DNA of 64,000 bases from Candidatus Microgenomates bacterium (lineage in GTDB: Bacteria; Patescibacteriota; Microgenomatia; Daviesbacterales; UBA10151), in NCBI GenBank assembly GCA_016182045.1, contig JACOYE010000008.1, positions 64,502 to 128,501 on the forward strand. The letters are read 5' to 3'. This document shows, in pieces, positions 18,742 through 60,692 of this stretch; the stretch's first letter is position 1; each line of letters opens with the position of its first letter. The position numbers and the translations under genes are program-made. Below the pieces are notes generated by a model, which ran no database searches, had not been told where the DNA came from, and saw nothing but the letters and a program-made list of their open reading frames with translations.

Positions 18742-19245
18742 TTAGAAATCCATATTATCTGATTCAATCACCATTACCCAGTCTTTTATCCCTAGTTTTT
18801 TTATAAAATCCCTGAGGGCTTGGGTACAGTTTTTCTTAGTTATCCAAACACTTTTTTGTAGCTGTTTAAAACCTAACCATTTTAGTTTATACCTTAATAG
18901 ATCGCGCGCTACTCTTCTTTTCTCCGGAACATCCCATATCACTATTCTCCATTTTCCATCCCACGGCTCATCAATTAATTTCATTTTTGTCCAAAGAGCC
19001 TTATCTCTTCCTGAATCTGTTAATCTAACAACCAATTCCTTATCATCAATTAGCTCAACAAATCCATTCTCTCTCAACCTTTTAAGAGCAAGTGCAAGGG
19101 TTGATTTCTTAAGTGGTCTGTCCCACCAACCGTAATAGGCGTAAAGATGCGGCTTATATGCAAAATGTTCAAATCTAATATACCCATCAACAGACTTCTC
19201 TAGAGTCAGAAGAACGAAATTAGTAAGGCTTTTTTTAGTAAACAT
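18742..19245 (-). CDS. PaaX-family-like transcriptional regulator (short form)
   Basis: 167 aa; N-terminal wHTH, C-terminal WDGKWRIVIWDVPEKRR…LGF…LQKSVW matching the PaaX C-terminal signature; paralog of 28111-28614. Confidence 0.6.
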   Translation of the reverse strand: MFTKKSLTNFVLLTLEKSVDGYIRFEHFAYKPHLYAYYGWWDRPLKKSTLALALKRLRENGFVELIDDKELVVRLTDSGRDKALWTKMKLIDEPWDGKWRIVIWDVPEKRRVARDLLRYKLKWLGFKQLQKSVWITKKNCTQALRDFIKKLGIKDWVMVIESDNMDF

Positions 19246-28110: not shown

Positions 28111-28614
28111 CTAGCGTCCGACATTATCTGATTCTAAAACAATTACCCAATCCTCTATTCCCACACTTTTTATAAATTCCCTTAAAACTTTTGTACAGTT
28201 TTTCTTAGTTGCCCAAACACTTTGTTGCCAATGAATAAAACCCCACTTCTTGAGGCTATCCCTCAATAAATTTCTTGCCTGTCTTCTTTTCTCAGGAACA
28301 TCAAATATGACTAGTCTCCACTTTCCATCCCACTTCTCATCTGACAGCTTAATACTTTCCCAAATAGCCTTTTGTCTTCCGTGATCTGTCAGCCGATATG
28401 CCAATTTTTCATCGCTGACAAAATCAATCATTCCTCTTTCCCTTAATCTTTTAACAGCCTGAGCAAGTGAGGCTTTTTTTAATGGTCTATCCCAACCAGC
28501 ACCCCATGCATAGGAGTATGAATGGTGGATTAAATCATCATATCTTACATATCCATCTATAGATTTTTCTAATGTAAGAAGAATAAACTTGGCGATACTA
28601 TTTTTTGTCCCCAT
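28111..28614 (-). CDS. PaaX-family-like transcriptional regulator (short form), paralog 2
   Basis: 167 aa; same architecture as 18742-19245 (…WDGKWRLVIFDVPEKRRQARNLLRDSLKKWGF…QQSVWA…). Confidence 0.6.
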   Translation of the reverse strand: MGTKNSIAKFILLTLEKSIDGYVRYDDLIHHSYSYAWGAGWDRPLKKASLAQAVKRLRERGMIDFVSDEKLAYRLTDHGRQKAIWESIKLSDEKWDGKWRLVIFDVPEKRRQARNLLRDSLKKWGFIHWQQSVWATKKNCTKVLREFIKSVGIEDWVIVLESDNVGR

Positions 28615-47842: not shown

Positions 47843-49135
47843 ATGCCCCTGAAGCCAGAACCAAAACATGATCATGGAATTTTAAAATTCCCTCAAGGTT
47901 TCCTATGGGGAGCAGCCACCTCTGCCCACCAGGTGGAGGGTAATAATGTCCATAATGACTGGTGGGCATGGGAGCAGGGCAAGCCCTTTGACTTACGCTC
48001 AGGGCAAGCCTGCGATCAGTATCATCTCTATGAACAGGATTTTGATCTGGCCAAATCCTTAAATCACAATGCTCACCGCTTATCCATTGAATGGTCAAGG
48101 ATAGAACCTCATGAAGGTCAGTTCAATGAGAAGGAAATTGAACACTACAAAAAGGTCTTAAAAGCCTTAAAGCAGCGCGGTTTCACGGTGATGCTGACCC
48201 TTTGGCACTTTACCCTACCAAAGTGGGTGGCAGATGAGGGAGGCTGGGAAAACGGCCAAACTGTTAAGTATTTTGAGAGATTTGTGCGCAAAATTGTACC
48301 GGAGATTGCAGACTATGTTGACTTATGGGTGACCATCAATGAACCGGGTGTTTATATTTATGAAACTTATATAGCCAGGCAGTGGCCTAATGCCAAAAGG
48401 AGTCTTTGGGGACAAATCAAATCCTTTCTTAATTTGGCTTCGGCCCACAAAAAGGTGTACAATTTTTTGCATCAAAGTTTCCCGGCGGGCAAACCAGTCG
48501 GTATGGCCAACAATATCCTATCTTTTGAACCTTATCACAAACACTCCATCATAGAACAACTGGCTGTTTCCTTAAATGATATCTTTATCAATCATTTATT
48601 CTATTTCTTAACAGGCAAGACTCATGATTTTTTGGGAATAAATTACTACTTTCACGTCCGTTTTAAACACAGAATGCTACTGCCTCAAGCCGTAAACACC
48701 ACGGCTCAAACTCATGACATTTCCGATTTAGGCTGGGAGGTTTTTCCGGAAGGTATTTTTGATGTTTTAACCGATCTGTCTGATGATCTGCCCATTTATA
48801 TTACAGAGTGTGGCATAGCTTCCACCAATGATGATAGAAGAAATAGGTTTTTAATCACCTATTTGCAGGAAGTGGCCAGAGCCATCAAAGTGGGGGTAAA
48901 TGTGAGAGGCTTTTTCTATTGGTCTTTGATTGATAATTTTGAATGGCAGATGGGATTTGAACCCAGATTCGGCCTTGTTGAAGTAGATTATCAAACACAG
49001 CAAAGAATCATCCGTCCTTCTGCCAAAGTTTATGCTGAGATTATTGCCAGAGGGGGCATCCCTCATAATTTGATGCGGTTTATCGGACACACAGTTACAG
49101 CTAAAGAAGTTCTGGCCAGAAAATCCCATCCATGA
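47843..49135 (+). CDS. GH1-family beta-glucosidase
   Basis: 430 aa; FLWGAATSAHQVEG N-terminal signature, TINEPGV acid/base, YITECG nucleophile region. Confidence 0.85.
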   Translation: MPLKPEPKHDHGILKFPQGFLWGAATSAHQVEGNNVHNDWWAWEQGKPFDLRSGQACDQYHLYEQDFDLAKSLNHNAHRLSIEWSRIEPHEGQFNEKEIEHYKKVLKALKQRGFTVMLTLWHFTLPKWVADEGGWENGQTVKYFERFVRKIVPEIADYVDLWVTINEPGVYIYETYIARQWPNAKRSLWGQIKSFLNLASAHKKVYNFLHQSFPAGKPVGMANNILSFEPYHKHSIIEQLAVSLNDIFINHLFYFLTGKTHDFLGINYYFHVRFKHRMLLPQAVNTTAQTHDISDLGWEVFPEGIFDVLTDLSDDLPIYITECGIASTNDDRRNRFLITYLQEVARAIKVGVNVRGFFYWSLIDNFEWQMGFEPRFGLVEVDYQTQQRIIRPSAKVYAEIIARGGIPHNLMRFIGHTVTAKEVLARKSHP

Positions 49136-50973
49136 ATCATATCCCTTTTACCATTCTTGCATACTTTTTAAACAGTGTCTCAGTCACCATTAACAAACTG
49201 ATCTTGGTTAAATCCCTGATCGATCCCCTAATTTATATCTTCTACATCAGTTTAGTCTCTCTTTTGGCCATACTGATCCTGCCTTTTACCAAAATACCCT
49301 CTCCTTTAGTGTTTATCTTATCATCCCAGTCAACTTTGCTTTGGACTGGGGGAGCATATTTTATGTTCAAGGCCTTAAGGTCGGGTCAAGTCCAAAGAGT
49401 CATCCCGGCAATTGGTACCCTCACCCCTTTAATTTTACTGATGATGACCTCCTTCACGGAAAAACTGTCCCTTAATCAAATTTGGGCAGTGGGATTTTTA
49501 ATTGCCGGACTTATCTTTTTAACCATGGGCGACTGGAAGGGCAAACTCACTCTTTGGGAAATTGCTTTTGAGGTAATCTCCTCATTCCTTTTTGCCATCT
49601 CATATATCCTTCTTCGCCAAGCTTATCTTCTGGAGAATTTCCTGACAGTTTTGGTGTGGTCCAGACTGATCTTGGTGCCTCTGGGGTTGGTCATCTTGTT
49701 AACTCCCCTCTTAAGAAGAAAAATTTTTCAGTCGGGCTCTCATCCTCTGTCTCTGGCCGGCAAGATGGGGCTTATTTTTATTGTTGGACAAATCTTCGGT
49801 GGCGCCTCAGAACTACTTTTAACTTTCTCTATCTCTCTTGCTAATCCTGCCTTGGTCAACTCCCTTCAGGGCACCCAGTACATCTTTCTACTTATCTTTG
49901 TTTTGGTTTTATCCAAAAAATTTCCCGATGTATTTAAAAAAGAACGTGCCCTTTTCTTTTTGGCCAAGCTGGTCGGTATCGTTTTAATAGTATCCGGTCT
50001 TTATATCTTGGCTTTTTCTCCTACCAGCGGCACCGCAAAGGTTGACCAATTACCCAAATGGGGCTTAAGCTTTTCTCCCAGATATGCTAAGTCTCTGGGA
50101 CTTGATCCTGAGATCGTCTATCTTAATGTGCTTAATGAGCTGAAGGTGAAAAGATTAAGGCTGCCTGTTTATTGGGATGAAGTGGAAATTTACCCGGATC
50201 AGTTTAACTTCTCCGCTTTAGACTTTTACCTTAATGAGGCTTTAAAGAAAAAGGTGGAGATAATCTTGGTGGTGGGATATAAACAGCCCAGATGGCCGGA
50301 ATGCTACCCACCTTCCTGGGTCAATAGTTTAACCGGTTCGGAAAAGAAGATGAGAGTTCTGAAACTTTTAAAGGGGGAAATTTTATATTTCAAACAATTT
50401 ACCAATATCACTACCTGGCAGGTGGAGAATGAGCCTCTTTTTAACTGGGGCATTTGTGACCCTGAGCTTAGGGATGGGCAATTCCTCAAACAGGAAATTG
50501 ATTTGGTTAAAGCTCTCGACCAAAGACCCATTTTAATAACAGATGCCGGGGAGTTATCTTTGTGGATCGATCCCATCAAATTGTCCGATCTTTTCGGCAC
50601 CACACTTTACAGGCAGGTTTGGTCCCCCTACTTTGGGCAGCTAACTTATCCCTTACCGCCGATCTTTTATACCTTAAAGGATAATTTGGTTCGCATCTTC
50701 TCCGCAAATAAAGACAGCACGACCATCATCTCCGAACTTCAGGCAGAACCCTGGTTGGCCCGGGGTGTCACCATCACCGAGGTCAGTGCAGCAAAGCTTA
50801 ATAAACAGCTGCCTATCAACAAACTTAAAGGCAATTTTGAATATGCCAAAGAGACCAATTTTCCTCAAATTTATTTGTGGGGAGCGGAATGGTGGTATTA
50901 TATGGAGAAACAAGGCTATCCCCAGTACCTGGAATATGCCAAGACAATTTTTAGTAATGATTCACAAAATTAG
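49132..50973 (+). CDS. fusion protein: DMT/EamA-like 10-TM domain + C-terminal TIM-barrel glycoside hydrolase (GH5-like)
   Basis: 613 aa; C-domain …VYWDEVE…, …WQVENEP… (GH5-type NEP acid/base), …ITDAGE…. Confidence 0.55.
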   Translation: MNHIPFTILAYFLNSVSVTINKLILVKSLIDPLIYIFYISLVSLLAILILPFTKIPSPLVFILSSQSTLLWTGGAYFMFKALRSGQVQRVIPAIGTLTPLILLMMTSFTEKLSLNQIWAVGFLIAGLIFLTMGDWKGKLTLWEIAFEVISSFLFAISYILLRQAYLLENFLTVLVWSRLILVPLGLVILLTPLLRRKIFQSGSHPLSLAGKMGLIFIVGQIFGGASELLLTFSISLANPALVNSLQGTQYIFLLIFVLVLSKKFPDVFKKERALFFLAKLVGIVLIVSGLYILAFSPTSGTAKVDQLPKWGLSFSPRYAKSLGLDPEIVYLNVLNELKVKRLRLPVYWDEVEIYPDQFNFSALDFYLNEALKKKVEIILVVGYKQPRWPECYPPSWVNSLTGSEKKMRVLKLLKGEILYFKQFTNITTWQVENEPLFNWGICDPELRDGQFLKQEIDLVKALDQRPILITDAGELSLWIDPIKLSDLFGTTLYRQVWSPYFGQLTYPLPPIFYTLKDNLVRIFSANKDSTTIISELQAEPWLARGVTITEVSAAKLNKQLPINKLKGNFEYAKETNFPQIYLWGAEWWYYMEKQGYPQYLEYAKTIFSNDSQN

Positions 50974-51128: not shown

Positions 51129-53390
51129 ATGGCAAGGAAAAGAGCAGGCACAACCAGTTTAACACCTTATCCTCTCAAGGTTGTCCTTCTTTTGATTCAA
51201 TTTATCCTGGTTAAGATTGGTTCCATACCCCTAAATATTGTTAAGTCTTTTATTAACATTATTAATATCTTTATAAAATCACTTCTTAATTTGAAATTAT
51301 CTCGCCACCGTGGCCGGCCCAGAACTACTCCCTTTATTCCCTTTTATTTAAGAAGGCTGAATAAAAATATTTGGGCCAAAATCCCATTGAAAATTAAAGC
51401 CTCTTTTGCCTTTATCATTTTGGTAACCTTAGTCTTTTTATACACCTCATTCATCTTAACTGCAGCATACCAGCTTCCCTCTCCTGACAGGTTGATCACT
51501 CCCCAGCAACCACTCACCACCGAGTTTTATGATCGAAGTGGAAAATTGCTTTACCGTCTTTATGAAGGCAGAAACCGCTACTTAGTCAAACTGGAAGATT
51601 TACCTGTCTTTCTTATTCAAGCCACCATTGCCATTGAGGACAAAAACTTTTACCGCCATCCCGGGTTTGATCCATTGGCCATAGCCAGAGCAGTCTATTA
51701 TAATGTCGCCCAAGGCTACCAAGAAGGAGCATCGACCATCACCCAACAACTGATCAAAAATAGCCTGCTGACGCCCGAAAAGACTATTTCCAGAAAAATT
51801 AAAGAGATCATATTGGCTTTTTGGGCGGAAAGGATCTATTCCAAAAATCAAATTCTTCAGATGTATTTTAATGAAGCTCCGTACGGTGGGCCTGCCTGGG
51901 GCATTGAAGCTGCCTCGCAAACTTATTTTGGTAAAGGGGCCAAAGATCTAGATCTTTCGGAAAGTGCTTTTTTGGCAGGACTACCTGCCTCCCCCACCCA
52001 GTTTTCCCCTTATGGTACAAACCCAACTCTTTCAAAAATCAGGCAGGAACAGGTTCTACAAAGAATGCTGGAAGAAGGATATATAACCCAAACCCAAAAA
52101 GAGCAGGCTTTAAGTCAGCCTTTGGCCTTAAGGCCGCCTGTTAACAATATCCAGGCTCCTCACTTTGTATTTTATGTACGAGATTTATTGGCTCAAAAAT
52201 ATGGACTGAGGGTAATATCTCAAGGGGGACTTAAAATCCAAACCAGCCTGGATTTGTCCTTACAACAAGAGGTGGAAAAAATTGTCTCTTCCGAAATTGA
52301 CAAATTATCTGCTTTAAATGTCAAAAATGGGGCTGCCATGGTTTTGGATGCCAAAACAGGCCAGATTTTGGCTATGATGGGATCAAGAGATTACCGTTAT
52401 CCCGGATTTGGCAACTTTAATGTTACCTTGGCCATCAGACAGCCAGGCTCATCTATCAAACCTATCACCTACGCTACTGCATTTAAAAAGGGATTCTCGC
52501 CCGGAAATACCATCTTAGATACCCCAGCTGTTTTTAAGGATCAATGGGGTAATTCTTATGCACCTGTAAATTATGATGGCAGATTCAGAGGCCCTGTCTC
52601 TATCCGTCAAGCTTTGGCCAGCTCATTTAATGTGCCGGCTGTCAAAATGCTTGCCACAATTGGCCTGGATAGCATGATTCAAACAGCCAAAGATTTGGGG
52701 ATTACCACTTTTGATGATTCTTCTCGCTTTGGTCTATCCTTAACTTTGGGTGGAGGGGATGTCAGGATGATTGATATGATGGGGGTTTATGCCACCCTTT
52801 CTCAACTGGGAGTTTACAAAAAACCTACTCCAATTATTAAAGTTACAGATTCTTCCGGCAATATCTTGGAGGAGTACAAAGATGAGGGCAAACAAGTTCT
52901 AGAAGAAGGTGTTGTCTATCTTATTACCAATATCTTGTCCGATGATCGGGCCCGCAGTTTAGCTTTCGGATCCAATTCCCTTCTTAATTTAGGACCAAAC
53001 GTGGCTGTTAAAACCGGTACTTCTGATAAGAAAAGGGATAATTTGACTTTTGGATACACAACTGATTTTGTGGTTGGGGTTTGGGTTGGTAATCCTGATA
53101 ACTCCCCCATGAATCCCCAACTGACCTCTGGTATTACCGGTGCTGCTCCGATTTGGAATAAGATTGCCAAAATAATGCTTTCCAAAATTCCGAGTAAAGC
53201 ATTTACTCGACCGGAGGGAATTATTGAAATTTCGGTTGATGGCAGAAAAGATTTGGCTATTGCCGGAAATATTCCCAAAGGTTTGGTTAGGGTCAAACCT
53301 GAAGGTGACAAACTGATCTTCTCGGACTCTTTCTCCTCTTATGCCACTTCCTCAGCCCAAGCTGCCATAAAAAATGGACTTACCAATTAA
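51129..53390 (+). CDS. class A penicillin-binding protein (bifunctional GT51 transglycosylase / transpeptidase)
   Basis: 753 aa; GT51 motifs (IAIEDKNFYRHPG, …TITQQL…), transpeptidase SSIKP / SFN / KTGT. Confidence 0.85.
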   Translation: MARKRAGTTSLTPYPLKVVLLLIQFILVKIGSIPLNIVKSFINIINIFIKSLLNLKLSRHRGRPRTTPFIPFYLRRLNKNIWAKIPLKIKASFAFIILVTLVFLYTSFILTAAYQLPSPDRLITPQQPLTTEFYDRSGKLLYRLYEGRNRYLVKLEDLPVFLIQATIAIEDKNFYRHPGFDPLAIARAVYYNVAQGYQEGASTITQQLIKNSLLTPEKTISRKIKEIILAFWAERIYSKNQILQMYFNEAPYGGPAWGIEAASQTYFGKGAKDLDLSESAFLAGLPASPTQFSPYGTNPTLSKIRQEQVLQRMLEEGYITQTQKEQALSQPLALRPPVNNIQAPHFVFYVRDLLAQKYGLRVISQGGLKIQTSLDLSLQQEVEKIVSSEIDKLSALNVKNGAAMVLDAKTGQILAMMGSRDYRYPGFGNFNVTLAIRQPGSSIKPITYATAFKKGFSPGNTILDTPAVFKDQWGNSYAPVNYDGRFRGPVSIRQALASSFNVPAVKMLATIGLDSMIQTAKDLGITTFDDSSRFGLSLTLGGGDVRMIDMMGVYATLSQLGVYKKPTPIIKVTDSSGNILEEYKDEGKQVLEEGVVYLITNILSDDRARSLAFGSNSLLNLGPNVAVKTGTSDKKRDNLTFGYTTDFVVGVWVGNPDNSPMNPQLTSGITGAAPIWNKIAKIMLSKIPSKAFTRPEGIIEISVDGRKDLAIAGNIPKGLVRVKPEGDKLIFSDSFSSYATSSAQAAIKNGLTN

Positions 53391-53415
53391 GATATGATAT
53401 AAAGATTCGACTCTT

Positions 53416-54567
53416 ATGATGAGTCGCATTGAAGCAAAAGGGGGATCTTCCTCCTTGATTAGGTCAATTCAAGCAGGTCTTGGAAGAGGACTTAATTTGA
53501 TAGGTGCCTGGAAAGGATCTCTTTTGAATTCGGAGATTGCTCATACGGTTCTACTCCCCTCTCAACCAAATATTTCAAAATATATACAACAAGTGGAAGC
53601 AGAAGAGGTTATCCTCAATCAGGGAAGTATTGAAATTATAGAAAGATTGGTTGGGCATCCTTTAGATCGAGGGCGGTACCGACAATTGAAACAACTTTTG
53701 GGTGGTAAAAAATCCAACTATCAAAGGATGGAAAAAGACGCTGTTGTTGAAGTCAGACTAATAGATGGTGTGGATATTGCCCGCATTCCCTCTCTTTTCC
53801 CTTTTCCTGAAGAGTTACCCAAAGTAGTAGCTATTACCAGCTTTGACTATTTACTGTCCGATGTTTATCTACATCATTCATTCTCAACTGTAACTTTGGG
53901 AGGTGAACCATTATCTTTATGGGATGATGAGGGTAAAGCATATCCACCTGATGATCTTTTAAAAGATTCTATTGAAGCACTCTATCCAGGAGATTCTATA
54001 AAATTTTCCAACGGTGATGGCTTAACTATGACCACAACAATACTGCCAATACAAGAAGGCAAGCCTATGCCACAATTTGTTTTGGCAGTTGAAAAAAATA
54101 GGGCAGCAAATTTCCAAGCTACAATTGCTGAAGCAAGAAGGAGAGATCTTGCAATCTTATGGAAGGTAAAAGAAGCACATTTGGGGCTGATGGAAGCGCT
54201 ATTTTGGCGAGACCTGAACGATCCGACAAAGCGGGTTTTCATTCAAGATAGAAGCGGCAATCAAACCACCTTTGATAATAAGGAGCTAGGACGATTCCGG
54301 TTTGCCCGCGAAATTGTGCATGGAACATTTGATAGCGTGATTGAATATACCAGAGGAGACCTCGAAGAAGAGTGGCAAAAGGATATGCAGGCTATTAAAA
54401 CGAATGATCCTTTTCCCCGCCACTTTAGACTGCTCACTGTTGGGATTGGTGATAATTATGAAACAGGAAGATCCCTTGCGAAGTACGCTTTGGCTAAAGT
54501 TGAAGGTAAATACATCATCCAGTGTCCACCAGTGGCAGTGACATTTTCTTATAACCAAACTAGATAG
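53416..54567 (+). CDS. hypothetical protein
   Basis: 383 aa; no recognisable family. Confidence 0.45.
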   Translation: MMSRIEAKGGSSSLIRSIQAGLGRGLNLIGAWKGSLLNSEIAHTVLLPSQPNISKYIQQVEAEEVILNQGSIEIIERLVGHPLDRGRYRQLKQLLGGKKSNYQRMEKDAVVEVRLIDGVDIARIPSLFPFPEELPKVVAITSFDYLLSDVYLHHSFSTVTLGGEPLSLWDDEGKAYPPDDLLKDSIEALYPGDSIKFSNGDGLTMTTTILPIQEGKPMPQFVLAVEKNRAANFQATIAEARRRDLAILWKVKEAHLGLMEALFWRDLNDPTKRVFIQDRSGNQTTFDNKELGRFRFAREIVHGTFDSVIEYTRGDLEEEWQKDMQAIKTNDPFPRHFRLLTVGIGDNYETGRSLAKYALAKVEGKYIIQCPPVAVTFSYNQTR

Positions 54568-54583
54568 CTATTTCGGGTCCTCT

Positions 54584-54612
54584 TGACAATCTAATTGGCA
54601 TCTATTACCATT
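54584..54612 (+). promoter_or_regulatory. sigma70-like promoter (TTGACA-17-TACCAT) placing the TSS at the ATG of the next ORF (leaderless)
   Basis: read directly. Confidence 0.35.
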
Positions 54613-54618
54613 GGGAAA

Positions 54619-54921
54619 ATGTCAAATCCAGAAACAGGGTTTCAAGATGGTGATGATGGTGATTTAAATTTTGCAGAAGCTCTTGAACGATATCTCTCCC
54701 TTCCAGGTGATGAACCTCCAAAAGATCCTAGTGAGCCCGGTCCAACAAGGGTGGAGAAATTACCTGCCGGAAATTTTAAAACAAATCCAGATCGATTTTC
54801 TGTACGCCCGGGTGGTGATATCACCAGAAGGAAAATAACAGGAGGCCCTAGTAGAATAAGACCAGGTATACCTCATCGCCTAAGGCGAGATAGAGGCAGG
54901 CAAAATTCTTTTGATTATTAG
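54619..54921 (+). CDS. hypothetical Pro/Gly/Arg-rich protein
   Basis: ATG-initiated form of ORF 54595-54921; GC-rich; no family. Confidence 0.35.
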   Translation: MSNPETGFQDGDDGDLNFAEALERYLSLPGDEPPKDPSEPGPTRVEKLPAGNFKTNPDRFSVRPGGDITRRKITGGPSRIRPGIPHRLRRDRGRQNSFDY

Positions 54922-54933
54922 AATTGGAACATT

Positions 54934-55335
54934 TTAATTTAACACCACCCAGCCTCTTAAATCCTTTTTGGGGATTTTTACAGGTGAGGTAATAAAGCGG
55001 GAAGATTCTCCGATAAAGATTAAGGTACCGTAGCGGGAGTCCGCCTTTTTCTTCCAGTAGGTTTCATCTACAGCCAGTCTCTTTCCATATTTTCCCCTGA
55101 TTTCCCTAATATCCCCTAAATCCAGCCCATCATAAAAGATCACTTTTTTTACTCTAAATTGGCCAATTATATCTCCTCCTGAAGGTTTTATATAAACCAG
55201 ATCTCTGGCAGAAATTTGTCCGAAAGGAGGATCACGTCTTTTAGAAAATCTACTTTCTATAGTCTTTTTACCGGAAAGTATTAAACTCCCCCCTTCCCCC
55301 TTAAAAATAGCCAGATGTTTCCCCATTTGGGGCAA
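54934..55335 (-). CDS. ASCH (PUA-like) domain protein
   Basis: 133 aa; …HLAIFKGEGGSLILSGKKTIESRFSK… matches the ASCH N-terminal pattern. Confidence 0.45.
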   Translation of the reverse strand: MPQMGKHLAIFKGEGGSLILSGKKTIESRFSKRRDPPFGQISARDLVYIKPSGGDIIGQFRVKKVIFYDGLDLGDIREIRGKYGKRLAVDETYWKKKADSRYGTLIFIGESSRFITSPVKIPKKDLRGWVVLN

Positions 55336-55387
55336 TTATAGCATTAAGTAATGACTTGTAAATCTATCTAATCTACTATAGAATCTG

Positions 55388-55909
55388 TTGCAAATGGCAG
55401 AGACTCCATGGAGAAATACTTCGCTTCTTTCTAGGGAAAGAGAGGTCGCAATGAATCCTTCGGATAACCATCATCCAACTCCCCTGCTTGACCATACTCA
55501 ACCACTTACCTTTACTCCTGAGGATGCCTTATATCTGGGGCAGTTGCTTCTCGTTGATAGATTCGGGGAGAAAGAGTGGCAACTAAAACAACTAAAAATA
55601 AATTTATCTGAGTTGGAGCGAATGAAAATTAGAGCTTTGGTGGAAAGACCAGGGGATATTAATATTGACGCTTATTTTGATCCTGAAGGATATTTTAACT
55701 CGCAATGGAAAGGTAGAATACCCGATTTATTAACCCGCTTTGCCGCATTTAATGCTGATGAGCGTCAAGTTTTTTTGGAAAATAATCAAAATGCCCAATT
55801 GATGCTGGGACCTTTATCTCATCTTTCTTTAGGAGAACTGCGATTTTGGCACCAGATCTCGCATAATGATCTTGAATTGGATAGACGTACTAATGAATCT
55901 TCACGCTAA
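55388..55909 (+). CDS. hypothetical protein
   Basis: 173 aa; no family. Confidence 0.4.
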   Translation: MQMAETPWRNTSLLSREREVAMNPSDNHHPTPLLDHTQPLTFTPEDALYLGQLLLVDRFGEKEWQLKQLKINLSELERMKIRALVERPGDINIDAYFDPEGYFNSQWKGRIPDLLTRFAAFNADERQVFLENNQNAQLMLGPLSHLSLGELRFWHQISHNDLELDRRTNESSR

Positions 55910-55945
55910 ATCCAAAGTTGTTTTAAACCCTATCCCTACCCTATT

Positions 55946-56392
55946 TTATTTGGAAGTATCAACAGAACCATTTTCTGTATGTCCATTAGATGAAAACTGT
56001 CCATTCTTATTAAAGACAATGTGCTCCATTTGTCTCATGAGCTGTTTTGCCATAGGATATACAGGGAGATAAACATCGTTTAGTATAACACCTGTCCAGC
56101 ATCCTACCCGTTCAATTATGTCCTTAAATTCTTCTTCTTTAATCTTATCCTGCTCAGTAATATCACCGCCAGCAGCTACACGATCCCACCCTTTTGCTAA
56201 AGCAATTACGTTCTCAAGTACTTCTTCTCTCCGATGTGGCTTAGATCCATTTTGATATGGCCATTCGTTATATGACTCTTCTGAACTTTGTTTCTCTAAT
56301 TCTATGCTGGCCAAAGACCGATTAATACCTTCTTTATTCTCTGTACGCATAGTACCCATATGAGCACCTATCTTTACTATAGGATAATACAA
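55946..56392 (-). CDS. hypothetical protein
   Basis: 148 aa; no family. Confidence 0.4.
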   Translation of the reverse strand: MYYPIVKIGAHMGTMRTENKEGINRSLASIELEKQSSEESYNEWPYQNGSKPHRREEVLENVIALAKGWDRVAAGGDITEQDKIKEEEFKDIIERVGCWTGVILNDVYLPVYPMAKQLMRQMEHIVFNKNGQFSSNGHTENGSVDTSK

Positions 56393-56489
56393 TTATACTC
56401 CCTCTTGTCAAGAAATGCAAATTTAGTAGGTTTTTATATGATGTAATACGAATTTTGAGACCTTTTAAAAAGCCCAAAATGGAGGATAT

Positions 56490-56780
56490 TTGTTGTATAC
56501 TATAAGTATGACTGAGTTAGCGAAATTTTATCCATCAGAACAAAACTTGGGGAAGAATTGCAGTTTTTGGGATTTGAAAGGAAGATTTGCCGGTTGCAAC
56601 TTTCCTAGAGTAGAAATGCAGGGAAGAACCAGTTGCGAGAGGATGATTGATGATGTGTGTTTATTACTAAAAGACGGTCGCAGACCCTCCAGTTTAACTG
56701 AGGAGCAAATCAGAGAATTAAAGTTGAGAATACCTAAGTTTGATGAAAAACACTATATTCCCCCTGGGGATATTTCCTGA
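56490..56780 (+). CDS. hypothetical Cys-containing small protein
   Basis: 96 aa; C…GC…C…C spacing could bind metal. Confidence 0.35.
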   Translation: MLYTISMTELAKFYPSEQNLGKNCSFWDLKGRFAGCNFPRVEMQGRTSCERMIDDVCLLLKDGRRPSSLTEEQIRELKLRIPKFDEKHYIPPGDIS

Positions 56781-56808
56781 ATCCACTGATATTTAGTATA
56801 ATTTATGA

Positions 56809-57264
56809 ATGGAAAGTTCTGAAGTACCAAGTAAAGGAATTAAAGGACTGGAAAAAGTTAAAAGAGGGCTTTCAGAGCTGGGAAACTATTTTAAGGAAAC
56901 ATTCGGTGTAGGTCCTGATAAAGTACCTGCTGAAAAAATTGATCAAGCAGCAGTGGCCAAAGTAATTCTTTATGACACCTTGGCAGAGGGTATGCGTTTG
57001 GGAGATCATTCCCAAATCCCCTTCTCTTTAACTACCCTGCTTGACAACATGGGCCATGTAGTCATGTCCCCAACAGATAATCCCAGAGAGAAATTTCCAG
57101 ATGAATATTTGGCAGTTAGAAGGCAGCTTGATATATTGGTGGGGGACAACATTTTAGTAATTGTTCCTCTTAAGGAACCTGACTCTAATGGAGAAAGACT
57201 TTATTATCAAGTTGTTAACAAAGATGCCTTAAAGAAGATTGCTTCAAAACAATCTCAAAAGTGA
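56809..57264 (+). CDS. hypothetical protein
   Basis: 151 aa; no family. Confidence 0.4.
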   Translation: MESSEVPSKGIKGLEKVKRGLSELGNYFKETFGVGPDKVPAEKIDQAAVAKVILYDTLAEGMRLGDHSQIPFSLTTLLDNMGHVVMSPTDNPREKFPDEYLAVRRQLDILVGDNILVIVPLKEPDSNGERLYYQVVNKDALKKIASKQSQK

Positions 57265-57290: not shown

Positions 57291-57318
57291 TTGACAAAAC
57301 TATAGTATGTGATACTAT
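57291..57318 (+). promoter_or_regulatory. sigma70-like promoter (TTGACA-16-TACTAT) ~12 nt upstream of the FabD-like ATG
   Basis: read directly. Confidence 0.4.
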
Positions 57319-57330
57319 GGTAGCCTCATT

Positions 57331-58335
57331 ATGGTAGAAACAGCAACACTAAAAAGACCTGCCTCATCAACTGCTGAGTCTTTGGAAATACCAGCTGCCA
57401 TTCTTTTCCCAGGACAAGGACTTCCACCAAAAGAGATTTGTTCCTACTATCAATTATTAACTGAACTAAATCCTGCCTTAACCACAAGGTATCTATCTTT
57501 GGCCCAGCAAGCACTGGAAAAAATCTCAGGTTCCCCCAGTTTTAACATTGAGACAGCTTTAAAAGATGCATCTTCACCTGATTTTAGAAAAACCTCCTTT
57601 GTCCAACCGGTAGTGTATTCTTTAAGTGTGCTCGCTTATGAAATAATGCGACCCAGATTAAGAGAGAGGAATATTATTCCCGATGTTATGGCCGGACACA
57701 GCCTTGGTGAATATTCTGCCATGACCGCGGCAGGTGTTTTTCCCTTCGAGGAAGGAATTGAAATTGTCACCTATAGAGGTAAGGTTATGCAAGAAGCTTG
57801 TGATGAGAATGAAAGTAGTCTAACCAGCATCAGCGGTCTAAATTTAGAAACGGTTCGAGATGAGATTTGCTTCCAAACTGGGGCAGAAATAGCTTTAGTT
57901 AATGCTCCTGATTTAATAGTGGTTGGTTCCCGTCCTGATCAAATTCCAAAAATTAAGGCAGTGGCTGATCAAATAGCAGGACAAAGTGTGAGGGTTGTAA
58001 CACTTGAGACAGCGGGAGCCTTCCATACACCTTTTATGATACCAGCGGCCGTAAATCTGGCAAGATTTTTAGCAAATTATGAATTTACCGATCCGCAATA
58101 CCGATTCGTCAATAATTATACAGGAGGTTTAGTAGAAAGCGGTGTAACTTTACGTGATCATTCATCAGAGAGTATGACCAGGCCAGTTTGGTGGGCTAAA
58201 TCTTTACAAACTATGAAAGAGTTAGGGAGTAAGACCTTTTTAGAATCAGGCCCAGGTGTGTCACTGAAACAAATAAATAAGAGAAATGGTATTGGAGAGG
58301 ATCAAACCAAAAACATAGTTGATATTTCCCCATAA
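57331..58335 (+). CDS. fabD: malonyl-CoA:ACP transacylase-like acyltransferase
   Basis: 334 aa; ILFPGQG and GHSLGEYSA motifs. Confidence 0.75.
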   Translation: MVETATLKRPASSTAESLEIPAAILFPGQGLPPKEICSYYQLLTELNPALTTRYLSLAQQALEKISGSPSFNIETALKDASSPDFRKTSFVQPVVYSLSVLAYEIMRPRLRERNIIPDVMAGHSLGEYSAMTAAGVFPFEEGIEIVTYRGKVMQEACDENESSLTSISGLNLETVRDEICFQTGAEIALVNAPDLIVVGSRPDQIPKIKAVADQIAGQSVRVVTLETAGAFHTPFMIPAAVNLARFLANYEFTDPQYRFVNNYTGGLVESGVTLRDHSSESMTRPVWWAKSLQTMKELGSKTFLESGPGVSLKQINKRNGIGEDQTKNIVDISP

Positions 58336-58357
58336 CTTTTGTTATACTTGACAAAGT

Positions 58358-58381
58358 GGGTCGAATAATCGACCCTTTTTT
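58358..58381 (+). terminator. Rho-independent terminator-like hairpin GGGTCGA-ATAA-TCGACCC + TTTTTT
   Basis: read directly; 22 nt after the FabD-like stop, 6 nt before secE. Confidence 0.5.
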
Positions 58382-58386
58382 AATAA

Positions 58387-58581
58387 ATGCCCAACATTAT
58401 TTCATTTTTTAAAGAAGTTAGGGAAGAGTTAAATAAGGTGGCCTGGCCCACCAGGGAACAAACTGTCCGCTATACCATTTTGGTGGTTTTAGTAGCAGTT
58501 GTGGTGGGATTATTCTTAGGAGGCCTGGATTATATCCTAACTGCTCTCACCTCTTTTATATTAGGAAAATATGGACGATAA
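58387..58581 (+). CDS. secE: preprotein translocase subunit SecE
   Basis: 64 aa; amphipathic N-term (KEVREELNKVAWPTREQ) + single TM; immediately upstream of nusG. Confidence 0.75.
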   Translation: MPNIISFFKEVREELNKVAWPTREQTVRYTILVVLVAVVVGLFLGGLDYILTALTSFILGKYGR

Positions 58582-59275
58582 GAATCAGAACAACTCAGAA
58601 AACTCAGATAAATCAGAAGATCAGATTGTCACTGAGTCAGAAAGCCAGAACGAGCAAGTATCTGACACTCTGGTTTCCTCTGATACCTCTGATTCTTCTG
58701 GCACACCGAGTCCTTCTGAGTCTTCCGAAAAACCAACCAAACCTGACAATCCCAATGCCAAATGGTATGTAGTCCATACCTATTCCGGGCATGAAAATAA
58801 AGTGGCAGCCACCTTAAAGCAAAGAATTGAATCGGAACATTTGGAAAATAAAATTTTTGAAGTATTAGTACCCATGCAGGATAAAATTGAGATCAAATCC
58901 GGTAAAAAGATGACTGTCAAGGAAAAAATCTTTCCCGGTTATATTCTGGTAAAAATGCTCCTGGATGATCAATCCTGGCTGGCGGTCAGAACTACCCAGG
59001 GAGTGACTGCCTTTGTGGGCATGGGTAATAAACCCACTCCTATTTCCGATCAGGAAGTGCAAACCATAGTTAAGTTTACTCAAGAGGAAGCCCCAACTTT
59101 CAAACAAGTGTTTGCTACCGATGATACTGTTAAAATAATAGACGGTCCGTTTGCCGAGTTTATCGGAAAAGTGGATTCTGTAGATCAGGAAAAAGGAAAG
59201 GTCAGGGTTCTGGTCTCCATATTTGGTCGCGAGACACCAGTGGAATTAGATTTTTTGCAAGTGCAGAAAATATAA
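58571..59275 (+). CDS. nusG: transcription termination/antitermination factor NusG (with ~60-aa acidic Ser/Asp-rich N-terminal extension)
   Basis: NGN domain (KWYVVHTYSGHENKV) and KOW domain (…GKVDSVDQEKGKVRVLVSIFGR…). Confidence 0.9.
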   Translation: MDDKNQNNSENSDKSEDQIVTESESQNEQVSDTLVSSDTSDSSGTPSPSESSEKPTKPDNPNAKWYVVHTYSGHENKVAATLKQRIESEHLENKIFEVLVPMQDKIEIKSGKKMTVKEKIFPGYILVKMLLDDQSWLAVRTTQGVTAFVGMGNKPTPISDQEVQTIVKFTQEEAPTFKQVFATDDTVKIIDGPFAEFIGKVDSVDQEKGKVRVLVSIFGRETPVELDFLQVQKI

Positions 59276-59822: not shown

Positions 59823-60692
59823 ATGGGTAAAACTAAAATTAAGGTTATTGATGCATCTCAGCCTGAGGTTGAGAAAAAGAAAGCCTCTAAAAAGGCAGAA
59901 AAACAGACGATAGAAGATAGAAAATCGAAGGTAGTGGTAGAAGATAGAGAATCGAAGATAGAAGAAAAAGAAAAAGTCCATCCTCAGCCTTCTACTATCA
60001 AAAAACCATCTTCTACCATCCATCATCCATCGTCAAAAAAAGTTAGATCCAAGAAATACCAGCAAGTTATAAAAGACCTGGACAGGACTAAATCCTATAC
60101 CCTCCCCGAGGCAGTTGACATGGTCAAAAAATTAAGCTACGCTAAATTTAATGCCACCTTAGAGGCTCATATAAACACCGCGCAAACGGGTCTACGTGGT
60201 CTGGTCTCCCTGCCCTATGCATCCGGGAAGAAATTACGCATCTTAGCCTTCGGTAAAGGCGCTGAACAATCGGGCGCAGATTTAGTTGGGACTGATGAGA
60301 TAATTGAAAGAATTAGTCAGGGAAAGGTGGATTTTGACTTAATTATAACCACTCCTGAGTGGATGCCCAAGTTGGCCAAAGTGGCCAAAATTTTAGGACC
60401 CAAGGGCTTGATGCCCAATCCCAAAAACGGCACTATCACTCCGCCAGCTGGCGGATCAGCTGACGGATTAAAGAAGGCAATTGAAGGATTTCAGGCCGGA
60501 AAAACCGAGTACAAAACCGAGTCTAAAGCTCCTGTTGTCCACCTTGCCCTGGGAAAATTAAGCCAGCCCACTGATGAACTTTCTCAAAATATCCAGACTC
60601 TTCTTCAAACTATTGGCAAAACCAGAATTAAAAAAGTCTCCCTTGCCCCCACCATGGGCCCATCTGTTAAGCTTGATCTTACAACCATCTAA
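59823..60692 (+). CDS. rplA: 50S ribosomal protein L1 (with ~55-aa Lys/Glu-rich N-terminal extension containing a short tandem repeat)
   Basis: 289 aa; L1 core from …KKYQQVIKDLDRTKSYTLPEAV…; repeat GAAGATAGARAATCGAAG x2 at 59921-59975. Confidence 0.9.
   Translation: MGKTKIKVIDASQPEVEKKKASKKAEKQTIEDRKSKVVVEDRESKIEEKEKVHPQPSTIKKPSSTIHHPSSKKVRSKKYQQVIKDLDRTKSYTLPEAVDMVKKLSYAKFNATLEAHINTAQTGLRGLVSLPYASGKKLRILAFGKGAEQSGADLVGTDEIIERISQGKVDFDLIITTPEWMPKLAKVAKILGPKGLMPNPKNGTITPPAGGSADGLKKAIEGFQAGKTEYKTESKAPVVHLALGKLSQPTDELSQNIQTLLQTIGKTRIKKVSLAPTMGPSVKLDLTTI

Follow-up and report, generated by a model that had tools for sequence, protein, structure and literature searches.

Does a run of neighbouring genes that match no known family form one functional unit, or have unrelated genes come to lie side by side? 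This question is raised by a 3.85-kb run (positions 53416 to 57264) in a 64,000-nucleotide stretch of contig JACOYE010000008.1 (assembly GCA_016182045.1) from a Candidatus Microgenomates bacterium, a member of the Candidate Phyla Radiation (CPR); this whole stretch is hereafter called the window. In a preliminary description, made from the sequence alone, the run had been suggested to be a defence or conflict module. We consider it to be composite, a reading to which we assign a probability of about 0.7: a housekeeping-type gene for an ASCH-domain protein lies between two strain-variable accessory slots, within a backbone that is syntenic among Daviesbacteria. The genes are designated, from left to right through the run, A, B, ASCH, D, E, F and G, followed by FabD. 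Their products correspond to GenBank entries MBI2039858 to MBI2039865 (locus tags HYT18_02190 onward), annotated as hypothetical in every case but that of FabD.

Synteny and variability of the two slots

Loci of relatives were anchored on NusG in the species representatives of GTDB, with 10-kb flanks, and were searched by tblastn with the window proteins; individual related loci carry numbers preceded by L. The relatives recovered in this way place the window in a Daviesbacteria-like lineage. The gene order common to the Daviesbacteria relatives is GH1 (glycoside hydrolase family 1), membrane protein, PBP1A, ASCH (minus strand), SecE, NusG and L11. In the window, the left flank of the first slot is the gene for a class A penicillin-binding protein (PBP1A; 51129..53390, plus strand; Pfam Transgly 3.6e-59, Transpeptidase 1.8e-21), the orthologues of which are 57-67% identical in 15 related loci. 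The right flank of the second slot is the conserved secE (58387..58581, plus strand), followed by nusG and the genes for L11 and L1. Slot 1, between the PBP and ASCH genes, measures 6-4039 bp across the relatives and 1544 bp in the window, where it holds A and B. Slot 2, between ASCH and secE, measures 58-5681 bp across the relatives and 3052 bp in the window, where it holds D, E, F, G and FabD. The PBP, ASCH and SecE genes are immediate neighbours in several relatives.

The cargo of the slots is largely private to each genome. None of A, B, D, E, F, G and FabD was found by tblastn in any of the 52 NusG-anchored loci, and 46 of the 70 slot ORFs (open reading frames) in a first set of 17 loci were singletons by BLASTP. 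The relatives carry toxin-antitoxin (TA) pairs of the Phd-PIN (L007, slot 1), RHH-PIN (L008, slot 1) and MNT-HepT (L023, slot 2) types, together with helix-turn-helix proteins of the sigma-70 region 4 type, an EamA transporter, a NUDIX protein, proteins resembling dockerins or metalloproteases, and lone FabH-like or FabD-like enzymes. Given this synteny and the unrelated cargo of the same slots in relatives, the run is a core gene between two variable slots, not one block. The accessory character that had been ascribed to the region is borne out, and Pfam domains (Transgly and Transpeptidase, and Acyl_transf_1, respectively) confirm its proposed flanks, a class A PBP and a FabD, with FabD itself belonging to the cargo of slot 2 and not to the backbone.

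Two further protein families recur in the slots of relatives. One, of about 140 amino acids and without a Pfam match, occupies the ASCH-secE slot (L056:228-671, L056:2899-3342, L064:2347-2769 and L017:9261-9689); the other, of about 260-380 amino acids, recurs in both slots (L056:1466-2464, L065:563-1339, L004:131-1282 and L014:7525-8244).

The arrangement resembles that of flexible genomic islets, or hot spots, in its conserved flanks (PBP1A, ASCH and secE-nusG) and in the variable length of the cargo at a fixed position, TA modules included. It differs from them in several respects: no integrase, tRNA or insertion sequence was found nearby, flanking repeats occurred at chance level only, the composition is native (the ORFs of the run have a G+C content of 0.38-0.43, the same as the rest of the window) and two slots are split by one conserved gene. 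Cargo may be exchanged or lost through recombination between the conserved flanks. In the composite reading, it is transcribed from the short-leader or leaderless promoters that are usual in this genome, and turns over rapidly between related genomes.

The ASCH gene as part of the backbone

The gene dividing the slots (54934..55326, minus strand, in an ORF extending to TTG 55335) encodes a protein of 130 amino acids that scores 25.0 bits against PF04266 (gathering cutoff 21.2; E 3.3e-5; residues 11-68), and the ASCH assignment of the preliminary description was therefore sound. The gene was found at this position in 20 NusG-anchored loci, with 40-79% identity, and on several further contigs. 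In an alignment of 21 orthologues, mean column identity was 68%, and the motif G19-K-K21-T-I-E24-S-R26 had invariant G19, K21 and R26 residues, with E24 conserved in at least 90% of the sequences. This motif follows the pattern GxKxxExR, which we take to be the signature of the ASCH family; YqfB of Escherichia coli has a Thr at the position of the canonical Glu of the window protein. In a comparison of the ASCH profile with PDB sequences, the best matches were 5gus and 5guq (E 0.22), which we take to be the Zymomonas ASCH protein, ZmASCH. The window protein is like YqfB, ZmASCH and the proposed tRNA N4-acetylcytidine (ac4C) erasers in exceeding the Pfam cutoff and in keeping the motif; it is unlike the family in that the match to the Pfam model is confined to its N-terminal half.

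E. coli YqfB, an ASCH-domain protein, is an ac4C amidohydrolase (PMC6972931), and ASCH proteins have been proposed to act as erasers of ac4C in tRNA (bioRxiv 10.64898/2026.02.27.708502). A conserved housekeeping role fits the protein of the window, because the characterised ASCH proteins are enzymes of RNA or nucleoside modification.

Gene A encodes a protein with the fold of HisG

The principal cargo of slot 1 is gene A (53416..54567, plus strand), the product of which has 383 amino acids and few relatives. A word-indexed search recovered one relative, at 71% identity, and just two to three proteins when an alignment of A was used as well. An exhaustive search recovered 10 among 1.84 billion cluster representatives, five of them at E<1e-30. 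The AlphaFold2 (AF2) model obtained with an 11-sequence alignment had a predicted local distance difference test (pLDDT) score of 84 and a predicted template modelling score (pTM) of 0.83, with disorder limited to residues 1-28. All of the 50 best matches of this model in the PDB (Foldseek) were ATP phosphoribosyltransferases (HisG), with E values of 5e-7 to 6e-3, probabilities of 0.98-1.0 and TM-scores of 0.52-0.61, normalised to short-form HisG. As judged from its model, A has the HisG fold. Among the viral structures of BFVD, the sole significant match was a giant-virus histidine-pathway fusion protein.

At the level of sequence, a single segment aligns with HisG. Residues 344-354 of A (IGDNYETGRSL) form a motif resembling the loop that binds phosphoribosyl pyrophosphate (PRPP), and residues 339-368 (LLTVGIGDNYETGRSLAKYALAKV...) aligned with residues 162-189 of E. 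coli HisG, a segment that we take to be the loop binding the 5-phosphate of PRPP. Within it, D346-N-Y-E-T350-G351-R-S353-L354 is aligned with DLVSTGATL of E. coli, which places a loop-like D-x3-T-G-x-S-L motif at the PRPP 5-phosphate position. The upstream part of the signature, D-[LIV]-x2-[ST]-G-x-T-[LM], is not conserved. Within the A family, D346 and G351 rank among the most conserved positions, with conservation of at least 90%. We consider PRPP, or a comparable phosphoribosyl compound, a probable ligand of A. RNase A sequences also matched the A profile; this similarity was limited to a chance D-x-x-ETG-S resemblance and was rejected.

Apart from its fold and the loop-like motif, A differs considerably from HisG, a type IV phosphoribosyltransferase (PRTase; PF01634). 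It has about 10% sequence identity and about 135-180 extra residues, belongs to a rare, fast-diverging family and has no his genes nearby, its neighbours being the PBP and ASCH genes; HisG and HisD were absent, by tblastn, from the window and from 0.93 Mb of related loci. A may be a PRTase-like, PRPP-binding enzyme with a role other than histidine biosynthesis, its substrate being, for instance, a purine nucleotide or base.

Homologues of A occupy the same slot on three short contigs, with 71% (L001), 39% (L060) and 33% (L061) identity. The gene orders are PBP, A, a PaaX_M-like gene and ASCH in L001; A and ASCH in L060; and PBP, a 336-amino-acid ORF, A and ASCH in L061. The C-terminus of the PBP and the ASCH protein beside these homologues are 61-83% identical to those of the window. 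The A locus is thus kept in a sub-lineage, and these comparisons of sequence identity indicate that its alleles have diverged much further than the neighbouring genes. Either diversifying selection or replacement by a distant allele would explain this divergence, and the data do not distinguish between the two. The sequence of L002 is 100% identical to the window and hence carries no information on polymorphism. It is an unlikely suggestion that A founds a new, fast-evolving branch of the type IV (HisG-fold) PRTases that would function apart from histidine biosynthesis in symbiotic CPR bacteria, for example through phosphoribosylation of a nucleotide or base, and would serve nucleotide scavenging or a nucleotide-based conflict with phage or host, with the extreme allelic divergence at a fixed locus as the trace of an arms race.

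The PaaX_M-like protein (Cas2-like domain) of the L001 slot is about 31% identical to the products of two 167-amino-acid ORFs elsewhere in the window (18742-19245 and 28111-28614, both minus strand); PaaX_M-like proteins thus make up a small family of paralogues at dispersed sites in these genomes.

FabD and the second slot

The last gene of slot 2 (57331..58335, plus strand) encodes a FabD-like malonyl-CoA:acyl carrier protein (ACP) transacylase (Pfam Acyl_transf_1, 1e-17). Gln11, Ser92, Arg117 and His201 are intact, the segments FPGQG, GHSLGE, YRGKVMQ and AFHTPFM aligning with these residues of the E. coli enzyme; we take these four residues to be the catalytic ones. The protein shares these residues and the Acyl_transf_1 domain with E. 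coli-type FabD. It is distinguished from it by a score of 176.1 bits against TIGR00128, under the equivalog cutoff of 260.9, by its position in a clade restricted to Microgenomates, and by the absence of ACP and fab genes nearby. This clade contains about 40 homologues with identities of 40-62%, after which the values fall to 37% or less. Members of the clade lie in the same ASCH-SecE slot in L055, L056, L064 and L065 and at other sites in L057, where FabD adjoins a BrnT/CopG toxin-antitoxin pair, and in L059. A FabH-like gene (ketoacyl-ACP synthase III, KAS III) also occurs in the ASCH-secE slot, alone in L008 (8595-9629, minus strand) and divergently paired with FabD in L064 (115-1230, minus strand). 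A literature search retrieved no paper describing FabD in CPR bacteria.

FabD, with FabH in some relatives, may be the remainder of a small malonyl-transfer function. A broader version of this idea would make slot 2 as a whole a decayed FabH-FabD pathway of acyl or malonyl transfer, with its small ORFs as accessories, one of them, for example, an unusual carrier protein. The intact catalytic residues, the recurrence of FabD in the slot (window, L055, L056 and L065), the divergent FabH-FabD pair of L064 and the lone FabH of L008 are consistent with this, as is the presence of F together with FabD in L056. However, a PP-binding (ACP) domain was detected in none of the 88 slot proteins; ACP, FabG, FabF and PlsX were undetected by tblastn in the window and in the 0.93 Mb of related loci; conservation alongside FabD does not extend to D, E and G; and FabD homologues are also present at unrelated sites. 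We regard the decayed pathway as an improbable account of the slot and retain the composite reading, in which FabD is one item of cargo among others.

Orphan genes and their coding status

All the ORFs of the list underlying the preliminary description were found again. That description was right that the genes cannot be annotated from sequence libraries and wrong in their number: the list holds six unassigned ORFs and the ASCH gene, seven in total, and not seven plus ASCH. The six unassigned ORFs yielded nothing beyond noise against Pfam, NCBIfam, PHROGs and PADLOC at E≤1, matches to these libraries in the run and its flank being restricted to ASCH and FabD. No transmembrane-like segment was found in any protein of the run.

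Gene B (54619..54921, plus strand; 100 amino acids) encodes a protein rich in Pro, Gly and Arg, with 71% disorder-promoting residues and a grand average of hydropathy (GRAVY) of -1.24, and is probably disordered on the basis of this composition. It forms a singleton cluster: no homologue was found in 67 loci, and B is missing between A and ASCH in L060 and L061. The possibility that it is a remnant of the PaaX_M-like gene of L001 was discarded, as the two have no similarity. For gene D (55394..55909, plus strand; 171 amino acids), the best similarity was a weak one, 29% over 66 amino acids, to an ORF in the same slot of L005 (7999-8397); there were no matches in PDB and the family libraries. 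No homologue of gene E (55946..56359, minus strand, in an ORF extending to TTG 56392; 137 amino acids) was found in related loci, IMG/VR or PDB.

Gene F (56508..56780, plus strand; 90 amino acids, four conserved Cys) has no family matches. Its homologue in L056 is 71% identical, keeps all four Cys and likewise lies upstream of FabD in this slot; between the window and L056, F is better conserved than FabD (71% versus 59%). A segment of F (residues 3-49, window 56508-56650, ELAKFYPSEQNLGKNCSFWDLKGRFA) resembles part of the LOV (light, oxygen or voltage) domain of Adagio/ZEITLUPE, below significance, and F lacks the remainder of the PAS fold. An interpretation of F as a truncated LOV/PAS domain, with Adagio matches at E 0.085-0.3 over about 47 residues around GKNCSF, was sub-threshold and was not adopted.

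For gene G (56809..57264, plus strand; 151 amino acids), no homologue was found in related loci or IMG/VR. Two assignments were rejected. An ACP- or peptidyl carrier protein-like role, proposed from an LGDHS motif, had no PP-binding match, and the AF2 model of G from a single sequence was unusable, with a pLDDT of 42. A reading of G as a fragment of a HAD-family hydrolase (haloacid dehalogenase) came from one metagenome match (L067, 32% over 96 amino acids) that was seeded by an exact 8-mer, was unsupported by PDB and Pfam, and is attributed to chance.

Given the searches made, the orphan status of B, D, E, F and G is provisional. B, D, E and G could be young, lineage-specific proteins.

It might be argued that B, D, E and G do not function as genes and are reading frames that are spurious or in decay, since the searches found a weak homologue for D and none for B, E and G, B is predicted to be disordered, and the model of G is poor. 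Coding status was assessed with a log-odds score of codon usage, for which 34 clear window genes served as the training set (mean 0.28), with off-frame stretches as a control (mean -0.40, 95th percentile -0.01). The in-frame score was 0.12-0.32 for each ORF of the run, and the scores of B (0.22), D (0.22), E (0.27) and G (0.32) fell within the real-gene range, well clear of the off-frame 95th percentile. Since the scores match those of real genes, the ORFs of the run, including the disordered-looking B, appear to be coding and native. A promoter-like box is correctly placed before the start of each of B, D, E and G, and the ORFs tile the region almost without overlap. Spurious or decaying frames are accordingly highly improbable, and we continue to treat these ORFs as genes carried by the variable slots.

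Defence, conflict and the weight of the composite reading

The most serious alternative is that the run, or a part of it (F-G or D/E), is a novel defence or TA-like conflict module in a hot spot that collects such modules. In its favour, relatives carry Phd-PIN, RHH-PIN and MNT-HepT pairs at these very slots, and F (90 amino acids) and G (151 amino acids) form a small, co-directional pair 28 nt apart, resembling type II TA pairs such as Phd-PIN and MNT-HepT in gene size and pairing. The alleles of A (33-39% identical, versus 61-76% for the flanks) show the divergence expected under diversifying selection or allele replacement. However, no gene of the window has a detected toxin or antitoxin domain such as those of type II pairs (none in B, D, E, F and G with Pfam and PADLOC), or a PHROG match of this kind, and a search of PADLOC-DB 2.0 returned no family for any of the eight proteins at E≤1. 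A, D, E and G had no relatives on the viral contigs of IMG/VR, and a literature search retrieved no paper tying HisG to anti-phage defence.

The distribution of the genes is also at odds with a module. ASCH is a core gene, conserved in the backbone of relatives; homologues of A turn up elsewhere unaccompanied by B, D, E, F and G; F accompanies FabD but none of D, E and G, its neighbour in L056 belonging to a different family; for B, E and G no second occurrence was found, and D has only its weak match. The genes do not travel together; their co-occurrence is largely confined to this genome, an outcome that the preliminary description had itself named as refuting its suggestion, and the proposals of one conflict module and of its inheritance as a unit are not sustained. 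We consider a conflict module unlikely, for the run as well as for its parts, and prefer the reading of a core gene between two slots with unrelated cargo.

Several points weigh against the interpretation favoured here, for the run in general and for gene A in particular. Some of the genes could have a conflict role, given the TA pairs that relatives carry at these positions. Distant homologues of B, D, E and G may exist, because the sensitive whole-database search covered A and FabD only. Comparison of the profiles of A and HisG (hhalign) aligned only a 28-residue P-loop segment, with E values of 0.011-0.037, and gave a probability of 3.8% over 28 columns against a 4-sequence HisG alignment; A matched neither the Pfam (PF01634) nor the NCBIfam (TIGR00070) model of HisG at E≤1. 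Because the likeness is at the level of the fold and the hidden Markov models of HisG fail to match it, A is a candidate and not an established HisG in function; we put catalytic activity at slightly under even odds.

Promoters and translation starts

The preliminary description had also attached importance to leaderless promoters belonging to the run. Upstream of B, ASCH, D, F, G and FabD, sites resembling -35 and -10 boxes do occur, ending 6-12 nt short of the start. That of B (54583..54611, plus strand) reads TTGACA-17-TACCAT and ends 7 nt before the ATG. The ASCH site, of leaderless type (55335-55362, minus strand), reads TTTACA-16-TATAAT, with TG in front, and lies 8 nt before the ATG. 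The D site (55356-55384, plus strand; TTGTAA-17-TAGAAT) lies 9 nt before the start, and that of FabD (57291..57318, plus strand; TTGACA-16-TACTAT, with TG in front) 12 nt before it. F and G have -10 boxes (TATACT and TATAAT, respectively) 6 nt before the start of F and the ATG of G. The E promoter (56384-56411, minus strand; TTGACA-16-TATTAT) would give a leader of about 18-24 nt containing an AGGTG site resembling a Shine-Dalgarno (SD) sequence.

These boxes are real and do not set the run apart. In 21 of the 52 other genes of the window (about 40%), a TAnnnT box ends 5-9 nt ahead of the start, versus 10.8% of random positions, and SD-like motifs at 19% of the starts of window genes, versus 13% of random positions, were barely above chance. 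Leaderless or short-leader expression is, as far as can be judged from sequence motifs, a property of the whole genome and not special to the run, and the counts suggest that leaderless translation is predominant in this Daviesbacteria genome.

Several of the TTG starts assigned mechanically in the earlier list of ORFs are probably wrong. Those of ASCH and E are unlikely because the TTG overlaps the -10 hexamer of the gene itself; ATG 55326 is more likely than TTG 55335 for ASCH, and ATG 56359, with the AGGTG site upstream, is more likely than TTG 56392 for E. The start of F is ATG 56508, as backed by its homologue, and that of D is ATG 55394 or ATG 55451, the ORF alternative being TTG 55388. 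Gene A has no promoter of its own and starts 25 nt past the PBP stop codon, and for these reasons it may be translationally coupled or regulated. A 6-bp palindrome (window 53408-53426, CGACTC TTATGAT GAGTCG) has the start codon of A in its loop.

A strong terminator-like hairpin (58358..58385, plus strand), GGGTCGAATAATCGACCC followed by TTTTTT, lies between FabD and the secE start codon and ends 2 nt before the latter. It could be a transcription terminator for FabD or a leader or attenuator of secE-nusG. A promoter-like site (58319-58348) lies upstream of it.

Neighbouring backbone genes

The gene adjoining GH1 (49132-50973, plus strand), which is kept in the Daviesbacteria backbone, encodes a 613-amino-acid protein without a Pfam match, the N-terminal half of which spans the membrane several times, whereas the C-terminal half is soluble. 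The N-terminus of NusG is extended by about 55 amino acids of acidic, Ser-rich, low-complexity sequence (window 58571-58760); this extension differs in length and sequence among the relatives, the matches of which mostly start at residues 20-60. In L1, the N-terminal extension is rich in Lys and about 70 amino acids long (window 59823-60060).

Significance

A suspicious-looking cluster of unknown genes in a CPR genome is, in this reading, largely the ordinary product of two variable slots, and constitutes a useful negative for the search for defence islands. To our knowledge, CPR bacteria are generally thought to lack fatty-acid synthesis; the recurrence of lone FabD and FabH genes at the same slot bears on the handling of acyl groups in these bacteria. 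CPR organisms are also, as far as we know, generally thought to lack amino-acid biosynthesis. The new item at this locus is a rare protein family, unseen by sequence models, with the HisG phosphoribosyltransferase fold; if this family is active, the chemistry of type IV PRTases would reach beyond histidine synthesis.

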